A DNA stretch of 28,912 nucleotides from Chlamydiota bacterium. Its GTDB lineage: Bacteria; Chlamydiota; Chlamydiia; Chlamydiales; SM23-39. Below, piece after piece: positions 18,928-24,169 of this stretch. A program made the position numbers and the translations under genes. Within the stretch, counting starts at the first letter, position 1. The number at the start of each line of letters is the position of its first letter. Where the stretch lies: the NCBI GenBank assembly GCA_038534095.1, contig JBCAXK010000019.1, forward strand, positions 1 through 28,912, written 5' to 3'. A model generated the notes under the pieces. It did no database searches. It was not told the origin of the DNA and worked only from the letters and a program-made list of their open reading frames with translations.

Positions 18928-18963
18928 AAAAAAAGCCCTGCTTATTTTGAGTAAGCAAGGCTT
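18928..18963 (-). terminator. Rho-independent terminator of the translocator operon
   Basis: Minus strand GCCTTGCTTA-ctcaaaa-TAAGCAGGGC stem (one G-U pair) followed by T7. Confidence 0.75.
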
Positions 18964-19011
18964 GGGTTGGGGATTTACAGACATATCCCGAAAGTTTGTA
19001 GGCAAGTAACT

Positions 19012-19032
19012 TGCGTAGAGCGGCTCTACGCA
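19012..19032. repeat. Perfect 10-bp inverted repeat TGCGTAGAGC-G-GCTCTACGCA
   Basis: Read directly from the sequence; about 20 nt downstream of the sctB-like stop. Confidence 0.8.
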
Positions 19033-19051
19033 GGCTCTTTTTACAGAGCTT

Positions 19052-19948
19052 TTACGCAGGAGCGCGGTTCTGTTCGATGATTACTCGCATTGCGTTGTTG
19101 TCTTTATCTGCTTTATCAATGTTCTGTTGGTAAAGCGTTTGTGATAGTTGCAGCAACTGGTTGAGAATGTTTGACACATAATCGAGCAGCGCCTTATTTT
19201 TTTCGGCTTCGGCTTTAGCGACTTCGACCCCAGACTGCAAGTAGGTTGTTGTAGCTTGTGAACCCATTTGGATCATTTGCGCTAACGCTTGCGCTTGTTG
19301 CATGTTGCCAGTGACTTTGTGTAGTACACTTTGCCGAGCGCTTTCCCTAAGCGATTTGAGCTTACGAATATTTTCGATCGTATTGGATATCGCTTCCCGG
19401 TCATTCGGATTGGCTTTTAGCGCAGCAACATCGTATTTGATTTGATGTTTTTGCTCTTCTGTTAAACCCTCTCTTAAGCTTGTTGTCTCACGAAGAGTTC
19501 GTAAGCGCGTTCTTGCTTCAGCAGCGTTCCGGTTGATGTTTGCGCGCACATCTTCATCTTCAATATTGGCAAGAATCGTATCTGGATTTTCCTCGAGCCC
19601 ATTTTGAATAGCTTGCTCATAGGCGGTACCATTGTCGATTTCTCCTTGGATGGAGGTGAGCTTGCTATTTTCCCGCAAGTTGTAGCAAAAACCAATCGAT
19701 TGCGTTAGAAGCATCCCTCCTCCAGAGACCATGTTTCCAAAGGCGCTTTGTAGCAGTTTCTCTGCTTCTTTTCGCCCCGATTGCTCGATTTTATCGGCTT
19801 GCAATGAGCTTGCTTCCCGGAGCATGCTCGCTTGCTCTCTTTGCTGCTGTGAGGTGAGGATAGCGAGATCAACATCCGCATCTTGGAGCGCGGCAAAAAC
19901 GGCTGCCAACTGGCCTACGCCTTCTCTCATTCTTCCTAATTCTGTCAT
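19052..19948 (-). CDS. Putative minor hydrophobic translocator SctB (CopD/YopD/SseD-like)
   Basis: Follows the SctE-like gene. Coiled-coil followed by a Gly-rich hydrophobic segment (SAFGNMVSGGGMLL), and Q/A-rich C-terminal helices (AQALAQMIQMGSQA...AKAEAEK). Strong AGGAGA RBS. Confidence 0.6.
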   Translation of the reverse strand: MTELGRMREGVGQLAAVFAALQDADVDLAILTSQQQREQASMLREASSLQADKIEQSGRKEAEKLLQSAFGNMVSGGGMLLTQSIGFCYNLRENSKLTSIQGEIDNGTAYEQAIQNGLEENPDTILANIEDEDVRANINRNAAEARTRLRTLRETTSLREGLTEEQKHQIKYDVAALKANPNDREAISNTIENIRKLKSLRESARQSVLHKVTGNMQQAQALAQMIQMGSQATTTYLQSGVEVAKAEAEKNKALLDYVSNILNQLLQLSQTLYQQNIDKADKDNNAMRVIIEQNRAPA

Positions 19949-19974
19949 AATCTTTCTCCTTTTACGTTCTTATT

Positions 19975-21824: not shown

Positions 21825-21859
21825 GATGAATTCTCCTCTTTTGTTTTAGCCATTACCGG

Positions 21860-23620
21860 TTAGGGCTGGATTTGGTTTTGTACCAGCTGTTTTAACCAGC
21901 CTTGGCTATAATCGGTGATGACCATCGATTTAATTTCCCCTTCAAAACTTTGAATCTGCTGCGTGATGGTTTTCATCTGCACAGAGATTGTTTGTGACTG
22001 GGAGGTGTAGGTGCTAGACGCGGTACGAAGGTCTTCTTGAATCGCGTTTGTAAGATCGGTCGGTCCTCCTGGAGTCTCTTCCCCTGGAGTAGTCGATCCT
22101 GCTTTGTAGAAGATCCCGTTGTCTTTTATGTATTTCGCTGCCCCGTTCCAGTCAGGGTTTTGTTGCTTAGAAAGGTCTCTTAACGTTTCACCGTTAGGTC
22201 CTACGTTCGCGCCAAAGATTTTGTCTAAAGCGTTATTGGTACTCGATACAATCGAGGGACCGAACATGTGTTGCAGCTGCTGCACTTCGTATTGCAGCGA
22301 CTGCATTTCTTTTGTCATGCTCTCTAAGTCGGCAGCTTCATTCGGATCGGGCGTTTGTCCGTTGGAAATGTCCGCAAACTTATTTTGAATGTCGGAGAGC
22401 TTCTTACTGATGTCTTCTAAACGATCGTTCAATGTACCGTAGTCTCCAAGCTGATACTGCATGTTGTTCATGCTTCCCCCAAAGACGGTGAAGATCAAAG
22501 TGATCAGCAGTTCTGGGTTGTTTTTGAACCTACGAACAAGATCATTTACCTGATCCATGAACCATTTGTGGAGCTGCGCTTTCAAATCTTTGTTATCATG
22601 AAACCAGTCATAAAGCTGTCCCATTTGATAAGAGAAGAAATCGGGAACTGGATTGTCTTTTTGATCTTGTATCCAGCTATCGATATCCTGAGACTCGTTG
22701 TTCGCATAGAAGGAAATCTGATTGAATAAGTCGTTGTCTCCAGACATCCCTTGGAACATCTGCGCTAATTCTGACATTTCATCCGATACGTTGTAGTTCC
22801 CCGAGTAGTACCAGCTGGCTCTTAACGCAGACACCACCATCTCAGCAAAGGAGGTTCCATCATCAGAAGTTACTGTTGCTAACTGGTTGAAGAGACTCTG
22901 CACAAACGGCGTATTCCCCATCTGGTTTTGCAAGTTCACCATCCACTGTAAGAAGGCAAATAAGGTGTTAGGATTCGAACTTGATCGAATAGCGCGCAAC
23001 CAGTCGTTGAATCGTTGCGTGATGTCGTTTTGTGATGTAGGCACGTCGTTAGGATCGAACGGCGGAGGCGGATAGTTTGGATCGTTCGTTGGGAAGTCGG
23101 GAGCGCCGTTAGAACTTCCTAAGGAGTTTTGTTGCGGCTGCGTTTTTCCCCCTTTTGTCGCTTTCCCCGATTGTGGCGATGATGCGCTTATTGCTGCCGA
23201 TTCTACAGCCGACTGGCTAGTTTTCATCTGCGTTTCTAAGCCTTGAAGCTCGCTTAAGTTCGAGAATAGATTGAAAGGAGATTGGCTCTTTTTTGGAGCG
23301 TTTACAGGGACGTCTCCATCCTGATCTTCTGCGCTGTCAGAAGATCCAAGGGCTCCACCTGCGCTCTTCTTCGAAGGCTTTTTGCCCAAGGTGATTTTTG
23401 ATCCACTTTTCGAGAAATACTCTTTTTGAATCATGGCGTGAGCAGTCTTGGTGATTTCTACAATCACCTGGGTAGAGAGCGCGGTTTGAGAAAGAATCTC
23501 GTGCACGTGATCTGCTACGTTCGATGGACTTGTCCCTGTTTCAGGCAAAGTCATATCTGAAACGTCATCTTTTTTATGTTTGTCATTTGCCCCGTGGGCA
23601 AAAATAGATAGGTGATTCAT
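21860..23620 (-). CDS. Putative T3SS-secreted protein (586 aa), candidate needle-tip SctA
   Basis: S/G/P/K-rich disordered N-terminus, central coiled coils and a long amphipathic C-terminal helix; lies within the translocator operon. The CDS is well supported, while the function is inferred. Confidence 0.55.
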   Translation of the reverse strand: MNHLSIFAHGANDKHKKDDVSDMTLPETGTSPSNVADHVHEILSQTALSTQVIVEITKTAHAMIQKEYFSKSGSKITLGKKPSKKSAGGALGSSDSAEDQDGDVPVNAPKKSQSPFNLFSNLSELQGLETQMKTSQSAVESAAISASSPQSGKATKGGKTQPQQNSLGSSNGAPDFPTNDPNYPPPPFDPNDVPTSQNDITQRFNDWLRAIRSSSNPNTLFAFLQWMVNLQNQMGNTPFVQSLFNQLATVTSDDGTSFAEMVVSALRASWYYSGNYNVSDEMSELAQMFQGMSGDNDLFNQISFYANNESQDIDSWIQDQKDNPVPDFFSYQMGQLYDWFHDNKDLKAQLHKWFMDQVNDLVRRFKNNPELLITLIFTVFGGSMNNMQYQLGDYGTLNDRLEDISKKLSDIQNKFADISNGQTPDPNEAADLESMTKEMQSLQYEVQQLQHMFGPSIVSSTNNALDKIFGANVGPNGETLRDLSKQQNPDWNGAAKYIKDNGIFYKAGSTTPGEETPGGPTDLTNAIQEDLRTASSTYTSQSQTISVQMKTITQQIQSFEGEIKSMVITDYSQGWLKQLVQNQIQP

Positions 23621-23667
23621 ATCTTCCTTTTTTGTAATGGTTTTCTATCCTCTCAAAGAGGTGTTCA

Positions 23668-24096
23668 TTATCCAGCAAGCCACTTGGCGTTTTTCGTACG
23701 CGCCCCTTTAGGCTTGGAATGTTCTTTTTCTATTTCGTCAATGTGTTTTGTATTTTTTATATGATCTCTGTAGAGGTTTAGCTCTTCTTTTGCTTTTGAA
23801 AGAGCCTCCCATTCTGCATCAGAGAAATTGCTCCGATTGCTTGTAAACGCTTCTAACTCTTCATTAGAGATCTTGAGCGCGCCTAGCGCTTTTTTCGATT
23901 GTTTTTCTAGCTGAACTTTCAGCCTTTCTGCATACTTTGAAGCTTTTTCCCGCTCTTCAGGTGATCCTGAATTGAGTTTGTCTAGGATCTGCTCAAAAAT
24001 GTGAATCGATTCGCCGACAACGCTTTCCATCTTCTCTGGCGTAAGATCAGAAATGTTTTCGTAGAGCTCTTCTAATTTTTGGATCTTGTCTTCCAT
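23668..24096 (-). CDS. CT635-like conserved chlamydial protein (putative secretion chaperone)
   Basis: ISNEELEAFTSNRSNFSDAEWEAL resembles the CT635 motif MTREQMEVFANNPDNFSPEEWRAL (from memory). Basic tail ending K-W-L; similar length. Confidence 0.75.
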   Translation of the reverse strand: MEDKIQKLEELYENISDLTPEKMESVVGESIHIFEQILDKLNSGSPEEREKASKYAERLKVQLEKQSKKALGALKISNEELEAFTSNRSNFSDAEWEALSKAKEELNLYRDHIKNTKHIDEIEKEHSKPKGARTKNAKWLAG

Positions 24097-24140
24097 AGTT
24101 TTCTTCCTTTTTGTCTGCTTTGTTAATTCCCCGTAAATCT

Positions 24141-24169
24141 ATTATAACAAAAAAAACTTTTTATTACAA
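24141..24169 (-). promoter_or_regulatory. Strong sigma66 promoter of the translocator operon
   Basis: Minus strand TTGTAA-N17-TATAAT with extended -10 TGn; AT-rich upstream sequence. Confidence 0.75.

Follow-up and report, generated by a model that had tools for sequence, protein, structure and literature searches.

The 28,912-nucleotide (nt) window analyzed here is contig C19 (JBCAXK010000019.1) of the G000 assembly (GCA_038534095.1; 1.6 Mb, 87 contigs, 96.6% complete), the source of which is a marine environmental chlamydia. Directly upstream of scc4 and cdsD, which are type III secretion system (T3SS) genes, and on the same strand, sequence evidence supports the prediction of a translocon-type T3SS operon of five genes with promoter-like and terminator-like signals of its own. 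The explanation that we favor for the unit as a whole, at a probability of roughly 0.6, is that it constitutes the standard translocon operon of its bacterial family and lacks a tetratricopeptide repeat (TPR) chaperone of the LcrH/Scc2 type, and that its products act as a putative CT635-type chaperone (gene 1), a secreted substrate (gene 2), a tip or adaptor protein (gene 3), and the major and minor translocators (genes 4 and 5). The components, in order from the promoter-like site, are as follows:

24169-24141, minus strand: promoter-like site, TTGTAA-17 nt-TATAAT with TG ahead of the -10 hexamer (10/12 match)
24096-23668, minus strand: open reading frame (ORF) of 142 amino acids (aa), gene 1 of the five-gene unit
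23620-21860, minus strand: 586-aa ORF, gene 2
21824-21351, minus strand: 157-aa ORF, gene 3
21336-19975, minus strand: 453-aa ORF, gene 4
19948-19052, minus strand: 298-aa ORF, gene 5
18963-18933, minus strand: terminator-like hairpin, 12-bp stem and 7-nt loop followed by a T run

As calculated from the coordinates, the spacers between the five ORFs are, in gene order, 47, 35, 14, and 26 nt. The promoter-like site has the highest score within 18300-24700 and is located approximately 45 nt 5' of the ATG of the 142-aa ORF, within a gap of 560 nt; since such sites occur in the region at the number expected by chance (7 found, 6.9 expected), it is the placement in this gap that counts. Terminator-like sites are also near chance (12 found, 8.7 expected), and the hairpin listed above lies approximately 90 nt past the stop codon of the 298-aa ORF, ahead of scc4. 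The ORF coordinates and the signal scan thus confirm a preliminary description of this DNA, in which a promoter, five tightly spaced genes, and a terminator were placed directly upstream of scc4. A metagenome contig from a second study spans 18300-23841, including the scc4 junction, with ~99% identity (48 substitutions and 1 gap), and all five indels among the variants listed fall outside the five ORFs. Because a second contig carries the same junction and its listed indels spare the ORFs, the arrangement is not a product of misassembly, and the frames are open in a second strain. Those homologs of the operon genes that are named in public databases are called hypothetical proteins, and word-indexed protein searches returned almost only loci that were already known. 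Our searches of the open-licence literature yielded no account of such a layout, none of a chlamydial translocon operon that lacks a TPR gene, and none that places CT635 next to translocator genes.

To compare the locus across families, up to 9 kb upstream of cdsD was fetched from 20 genomes; two of these yielded too little sequence (221 and 2360 bases), leaving 18 usable loci. ORFs were grouped by iterated hidden Markov model (HMM) search, and a Pfam scan took in 136 of the 155 ORFs of the fetched loci, the remaining 19 being those at the scc4 position. Translocator-like genes were found within 9 kb upstream of scc4 in 15 of the 18 usable loci, which represent the window's own family (f1) as well as families f2, f5, f12, f15, and f16. 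Within f1, a member of the 453-aa protein family is present in 10 of 11 usable loci; eight of the 11 are co-oriented with scc4 and have the gene order of the window, and two more (L012 and L019) are inverted. The f1 order consists of a CT635-like gene, often a ~295-aa gene, a gene of ~460-575 aa, one of ~150-185 aa, a transmembrane (TM) protein of 367-647 aa, a gene of ~290-315 aa, scc4, and cdsD, with the extra ~295-aa gene following the first gene in most co-oriented loci. Both translocator families are also present, inverted, at L022, which belongs to another family of the same order. At L023, L024, L025, and L027, likewise from other families of the order, one or two TPR genes are present, each directly before a large membrane-helix protein, co-oriented with scc4 and abutting it. 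Used alone as a query, the 453-aa protein found relatives in 4 of 41 genomes (G000 included); CdsD was found in 39 of 41. Two side observations concern these loci. At L012, scc4 is separated from the inverted operon by a fragment of an IS4/5-type transposase (DUF4096; 696-1073, genome G010), a possible trace of the inversion, and two adjacent ~445-aa proteins with PI3/PI4-kinase domains lie beside the translocator locus of L024 (genome G038, 3534-6174).

In the Chlamydia-like genome G052 (1.04 Mb), TPR-headed loci are found at 651 kb and 1,018 kb; these are the Scc2 and Scc3 translocator loci, which in Chlamydia read Scc2-CT577-CopB-CopD and Scc3-CopB2-CopD2. With cdsD at 764 kb, the Scc2 and Scc3 loci are ~110 and ~250 kb away from it, which agrees with the preliminary statement that Chlamydia translocator operons, each with an LcrH-type chaperone, lie apart from cdsD. 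The companion claim, that the placement of the window's operon is atypical, did not survive the survey of related loci. Overall, having translocator genes beside scc4-cdsD looks like the common arrangement in environmental families, and among the sampled genomes it is Chlamydia, with its scattered loci, that seems exceptional; the operon is a variant of a family-standard translocon module, and its placement is no oddity.

The lack of a TPR gene from the unit, also part of the preliminary description, was upheld: Pfam and NCBIfam returned no TPR match among the five operon products, and no TPR gene was found in the 11 f1 loci. At the level of the operon, this lack is family-wide and robust. Profiles of seven Scc2/Scc3-like chaperones and of four family TPR proteins matched nothing in contig C19. 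Seven TPR proteins from other families proved to be Scc2/Scc3 homologs (E values of 1e-25 to 1e-10 against G052), and in four other families the TPR gene directly precedes the big TM protein. Across 41 genomes, TPR matches of at least 100 bits were obtained in 13 of 16 genomes of other families versus 0 of 25 f1 genomes. When the whole G000 genome was searched with TIGR02552, a single sub-threshold ORF of 129 aa was recovered (contig C26, 9688-10122; L001, 1420-1809), which has a 166-aa ORF on one side and dnaA on the other and does not adjoin any membrane protein gene. The custom TPR profiles matched only this same ORF in the genome, at 21.8 bits (seven chaperones) and 28.9 bits (four family TPRs). 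ORFs of similar size that weakly match it occur in many genomes of the order.

A second module bears on the same question. In 16 of the 25 f1 genomes (G000 being one of the 25), a ~140-aa TPR_3-type gene (42-84 bits) is found in the order ~260-aa gene, TPR gene, ~310-aa membrane protein, and second membrane protein, adjoining an ABC permease. In G003, the ~310-aa protein scores 31.8 bits against SseC, enough for the cut-off; its SseC matches in G024 and L028 are weaker. The module of G000 itself, on contig C8 (L033, 3642-7662), is without the TPR gene, and its first membrane protein has a greater length of 469 aa; at the TPR position, only 8 nt separate the flanking ORFs, no TPR remnant is present in any frame, and a run of 97 N bases lies just upstream. 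It is likely that G000, as represented by its 96.6%-complete assembly, lacks a TPR class II chaperone at the genome level.

We next consider the two putative translocators. By hydropathy, the 453-aa protein has hydrophobic helices at ~127-163, 180-202, and 286-304. The Pfam SseC profile (PF04888) matches its residues 73-433 over positions 3-294 of 312, with 17.7 bits and an E value of 0.0029, and also spans the G015 counterpart end to end with 21.7 bits, the best score of the family. The gathering score of 30.2 bits was missed by the 453-aa protein and its family, and the whole-genome scan gave 8.3 bits. A profile of 12 family members had the Aeromonas translocator AopB (3wxx_B) as its top solved chain, with an E value of 4.5e-4 and the next chain at 0.12; the alignment covers AopB residues 58-218, comprising a coiled coil and two membrane helices. 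We read the 453-aa protein as a remote candidate for an SctE-type major translocator, and the sub-cut-off but full-length SseC match, the AopB match, and the central hydrophobic helices bear out the earlier SctE-like label. The 298-aa family directly follows the SctE-like gene in 10 of 10 related loci (alignment of 11 sequences). Its member in the window has one Gly/Ala/Ser-rich, moderately hydrophobic segment at ~71-91, which was scored as TM in two counterparts. As for the earlier SctB-like label, position, a length of ~300 aa, and the single hydrophobic segment agree with it, and a sequence match to SctB was not obtained. Its position, size, and hydropathy make it a candidate SctB-like minor translocator. 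As a separate observation on G052, the second translocator gene of L034 (3506-4825), at the CopD position and encoding 439 aa, is a clear SseC-family member (E value of 1.8e-42), and the first, at the CopB position and encoding 487 aa, matched nothing in Pfam; judged by family, it is the second gene of G052 that is the SctE homolog.

For gene 1, a profile of ten 142-aa-type proteins matches a 144-aa ORF in G052 with an E value of 6e-14, and the reverse phmmer search gave 2.6e-8. The G052 ORF adjoins the NqrA gene, far from both translocator loci, and this two-way similarity confirms that the first gene is CT635-like, as had been proposed. CT635 has been described as a 144-aa Chlamydiales-specific hypothetical protein (PMC1403754) and is listed as a putative T3SS chaperone (PMC7482065). 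A further report (PMC5962693) shows that CT635 co-purifies with the type III secretion effector CT622, that this requires the disordered first 94 residues of CT622, and that CT635 is proposed as a novel chaperone. As CT635 is a published putative type III secretion chaperone, the operon does include a candidate chaperone, a point that the preliminary description missed. The 142-aa protein, which has no TPR match, is conserved like CdsD (60% identity to the counterparts in G001 and G020) and is, by sequence, a putative non-TPR type III secretion chaperone of the CT635 family. A CT635-like gene heads the translocator-side operon in f1, L021, and L022, and in the TPR-bearing genomes G039 and G040 the CT635-like matches lie elsewhere in the genome; given that the genomes are kin to each other, this contrast in location amounts to a pattern and does not serve as a test.

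The 586-aa product of gene 2 is acidic. In an AlphaFold2 model built with seven sequences, residues 1-183 have a predicted local distance difference test (pLDDT) score of <50, and residues 190-560 are helical at a pLDDT of ~70-87, with long helices at 369-419, 428-469, and 522-570. The family is confined to seven f1 loci; it had no match in five genomes of other families, and a search of two Chlamydia-like genomes, G052 among them, was empty and was run without a positive control. From the model, the protein is probably a secreted substrate with a disordered N-terminal third, and by analogy it matches the kind of client that CT635 binds via a disordered N-terminus. Its identification as a homolog of CT622 was considered and rejected, as there was no solved-chain match and the CT622 C-terminal domain fell outside the top 50 fold matches. 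Leads toward a tip protein were also obtained: Atlas feature neighbors include IpaD/SipD tip clusters (0.91), and residues 366-561 form an elongated helical bundle that matches IpaD with a Z score of 8.5 (root mean square deviation of 2.5, 104 residues aligned, rank 20). The IpaD match sits among sensor domains, FliD, and FlgL (Z scores of 8-10), below the ~13 asked for helical folds; Foldseek returned nothing under an E value of 0.1, and neither the 586-aa nor the 157-aa protein matched an LcrV, IpaD/SipD, or EspA HMM. Taken together, these are weak and unspecific leads.

Gene 3 occupies the slot directly before the SctE-like gene, in which an ORF of 151-185 aa is found in 7 of 8 co-oriented f1 loci. 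The 157-aa protein is detectably homologous only to the slot proteins of G001 and G020, and a search of 1.84 billion representatives yielded five matches, itself included. Its AlphaFold2 model averages a pLDDT of 74, falls to <50 over residues 1-32, and has helices at 34-91 and 96-156; the predicted fold is a two-helix hairpin with a disordered N-terminus and is not a TPR fold. The isoelectric point (pI) is 8.0. At E values up to 5, none of 10 slot proteins matched the EspA (PF03433), LcrV (PF04792), or IpaD/SipD (PF06511) profiles, and DUF720 (PF05302) was matched neither by these 10 proteins nor in G000 or 18 other f1 genomes. Among Atlas feature neighbors of the 157-aa protein are clusters of small chlamydial proteins, at 0.91 and 0.90, with DUF720 present in 19-46% of their members, and EspA-flavored clusters at 0.87, below the 0.9 bar; both leads were set aside as unconfirmed by HMM. 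DUF720 marks the type III secretion substrates CT847-CT849 (PMC3931295). In a phylum-wide search, DUF720 genes were found, two to four of them in tandem, in 26 of 26 genomes of one family (with Chlamydia-like sizes) and in 14 of 14 of a second, and in 0 of 110 other genomes scored. A complex prediction for the 453- and 157-aa proteins gave a score of 0.00, which weighs neither for nor against binding. Identities to the G001 and G020 counterparts are 60 and 60% for the 142-aa protein, 59 and 59% for CdsD, 46 and 43% for scc4, 41 and 28% for the 157-aa protein, 41 and 34% for the 453-aa protein, and 33 and 24% for the 298-aa protein, a pattern that fits a cytosolic 142-aa protein and exposed 157-, 453-, and 298-aa proteins.

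In the explanation that we favor, the proteins encoded by genes 2 to 5 would be exported through the injectisome encoded downstream. The 142-aa protein would most likely serve as a cytosolic chaperone that holds the disordered N-terminus of the 586-aa protein and keeps it export-competent, as CT635 does with CT622. The 157-aa protein would most likely be exported and work in the stretch from needle to pore, at the needle tip or past it, and the 586-aa protein perhaps acts there too. The 453-aa (major) and 298-aa (minor) proteins would then insert into the host membrane and give rise to the pore, and the unit would run without an LcrH/Scc2-type TPR chaperone. The data themselves show the order of the genes, conservation in relatives, the absence of a TPR gene, the homology to CT635, the modelled hairpin, and a remote likeness to SctE; we infer the secretion of the products of genes 2 to 5, the pairing of the 142- and 586-aa proteins, the SctB role of the 298-aa protein, and the tip or adaptor role of the 157-aa protein.

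Several results count against this account. Curated family cut-offs (Pfam, NCBIfam) were reached by none of the five operon proteins. The AopB match is of high compositional bias (score of 22.3, bias of 20.0). Pfam matches of the 11 members of the 298-aa family (E values up to 1) included no known SctB family, and its comparison with solved chains gave coiled-coil noise only. By hhalign, the 453-aa family reached a probability of 2% against the large TM proteins encoded at TPR-bearing loci, and of 3% and 6.5% against the G052 CopB and CopD genes; the comparisons of the 453-, 157-, and 298-aa families with the G052 CopB, CT577-position, and CopD genes and with those large TM proteins were all non-significant, which is weak negative evidence because each template was a lone sequence or a four-row alignment of poor quality. 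With regard to gene 3, the slot proteins of more distant f1 members have no detectable homology to the 157-aa protein, Foldseek on its model found generic hairpins only (nothing under an E value of 0.1), and a SipD hint for the hairpin family (E values of 0.05-0.1) vanished when three securely homologous sequences were used. Hairpins are, moreover, also found in chaperones such as those for EspA and SseB. Some of these results would suit a different account, in which the 453- and 298-aa proteins are secreted Inc-like membrane effectors whose operon merely neighbors the apparatus. Inc proteins carry a bilobed hydrophobic domain, and the closely spaced hydrophobic helices at 127-202 of the 453-aa protein could be taken for one; the unreached translocator cut-offs and the lack of significant similarity to Chlamydia-like CopB or CopD genes point the same way. 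We consider this account improbable, given the end-to-end SseC alignments in two family members, AopB as the top solved match, and a position before scc4-cdsD that is conserved across families and elsewhere follows Scc2/Scc3-type chaperones.

The missing TPR gene and the role of gene 3 are open to other explanations as well. A TPR class II chaperone might exist in the unassembled part of the genome, in which case its lack inside the operon would still stand. An assembly in 87 contigs and at 96.6% completeness leaves room for one, the ~140-aa TPR_3-type chaperone of the second module is carried by 16 of 25 f1 genomes, and the N run lies in that very locus in G000. Even so, the locus is contiguous across the 8 nt at the TPR position and holds no remnant, and the genus mate G001 and seven more f1 genomes, some of them incomplete, are likewise without a match of at least 40 bits; such a hidden gene is unlikely. 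A somewhat stronger case, if still a tentative one, can be made that the 157-aa protein is not exported and is instead a non-TPR translocator or filament chaperone in the class II slot, keeping the 453-aa protein, the 298-aa protein, or both soluble. The slot is that of the Scc2/Scc3-type TPR gene in four other families, before the major translocator; the searches of G000 turned up no TPR chaperone that would serve the translocators; and the model is a helical hairpin, which is the shape of the chaperones CesAB and SseA. On the other hand, the 157-aa protein changes at the pace of the translocators, more quickly than scc4 does, while the CT635-like gene is conserved, and its low-confidence N-terminus of ~32 residues, its pI, and its Atlas neighbors with DUF720, a domain of type III secretion substrates, are less expected of a chaperone. 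For gene 3, we prefer export and a role as tip or adaptor, at a probability somewhat below even, to the role of a chaperone, which is less probable; other roles account for the remainder. Beyond the preferred account of the operon, it is conceivable, though doubtful, that the f1 translocon operates with no TPR class II chaperone at all, that its 157-aa hairpin (possibly with the 586-aa protein) is the needle-tip or adaptor component (SctA) long sought in chlamydiae, and that the CT635 family consists of ancestral chaperones of the translocon operon, from which they became detached in Chlamydiaceae.

The genes surrounding the operon place it beside a T3SS apparatus cluster. The features are as follows:

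18372-18788, minus strand: class I chaperone gene at the scc4 position (Pfam CesT, E value of 4.2e-12)
16515-18347, minus strand: cdsD (SctD), the first gene of the apparatus cluster (Pfam Yop-YscD_cpl, FHA, CdsD_PD1, CdsD_PD2, and CdsD_C)
27549-28637, minus strand: 362-aa homolog of the ~295-aa in-operon gene of relatives (BLASTP E value of 4e-15 to the 295-aa gene of G020)

Counterparts of the scc4-position gene adjoin cdsD directly upstream in 19 fetched loci, and as their alignments start at residue 13, translation probably begins at the ATG at 18752. CdsD of the window carries two FHA regions and has 610 aa, compared to an 830-aa open frame in G052. Past cdsD, the minus-strand cluster continues with a DUF5398 gene and an 86-aa ORF at the position of the needle gene (cdsF), for which no family match was found; it further holds cdsG (169.9 bits in NCBIfam, where the cut-off is 170), an ATPase, a YscO-like gene, a FliN-type gene, and later a secretin. 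At 1517 aa, the secretin (2432-6985, minus strand) is unusually long; its secretin domain is preceded by an N0 domain and six Secretin_N stretches. On the other side of the operon (24655-28637, minus strand), an 859-aa ORF without a family match parts the operon from the 362-aa ORF; contigs C72 and C13 hold weakly matching paralogues of the 859-aa protein. In G020, the 295-aa gene is located between the CT635-like gene and a 532-aa gene, and the 859-aa ORF between operon and homolog in the window suggests a local rearrangement or insertion.

We know of no accepted needle-tip protein for chlamydiae, and to our knowledge their translocators are understood by analogy only. The operon physically links a putative chaperone of the CT635 type to translocator genes, which suggests a past or present role of CT635 at the translocon that is testable in C. 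trachomatis. It would also provide a natural case of a translocator operon from which the TPR chaperone gene was lost or in which it was replaced, with a candidate for the replacement in the slot. Finally, the view of gene layout is corrected, as translocators beside scc4-cdsD look commonplace in the environmental families sampled.

Comparison to known systems places the operon between several types. Like the Scc2 and Scc3 operons of Chlamydia, it has two consecutive membrane-active proteins after small accessory genes, and a second translocator-like module is found elsewhere in the genome. In the Chlamydia operons, as seen in G052, the TPR chaperone comes first and the locus is far from cdsD, whereas the unit of the window is TPR-less and abuts scc4-cdsD, and the proteins have no detectable homology to those of the window. 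The operon orders espA-espD-espB of enteropathogenic Escherichia coli and sseA-sseB-sscA-sseC-sseD of Salmonella pathogenicity island 2 are similar in that a coiled-coil protein of 150-200 aa directly precedes an SseC/EspD-family protein and its partner, and the 453-aa protein is remotely SseC-like. They differ in that PF03433 was not matched by any of the 10 slot proteins, the only link being the Atlas value of 0.87. With AopB-AcrH (3wxx), the likeness lies in the alignment of the 453-aa family profile to AopB described above; AopB is held by the TPR chaperone AcrH, and no TPR partner is encoded in the unit of the window.

In Yersinia lcrGVH-yopBD and Pseudomonas pcrGVH-popBD, a small helical protein is followed by a large secreted protein, a chaperone slot, the major translocator, and the minor translocator, and the gene order of the window's unit is the same. 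Here, the slot gene encodes a predicted hairpin in place of a TPR protein, the 586-aa protein has no LcrV match, and most relatives of the window carry the extra ~295-aa gene. As regards the CT635-CT622 pair of C. trachomatis, neither a G052 protein nor a solved chain was detectably similar to the 586-aa protein, and the CT635-like gene of G052 stands alone beside nqrA. In the window, a 142-aa CT635 homolog is encoded directly ahead of a protein of ~600 aa that is predicted to have a long disordered N-terminus, the type of region to which CT635 binds in CT622 (PMC5962693).

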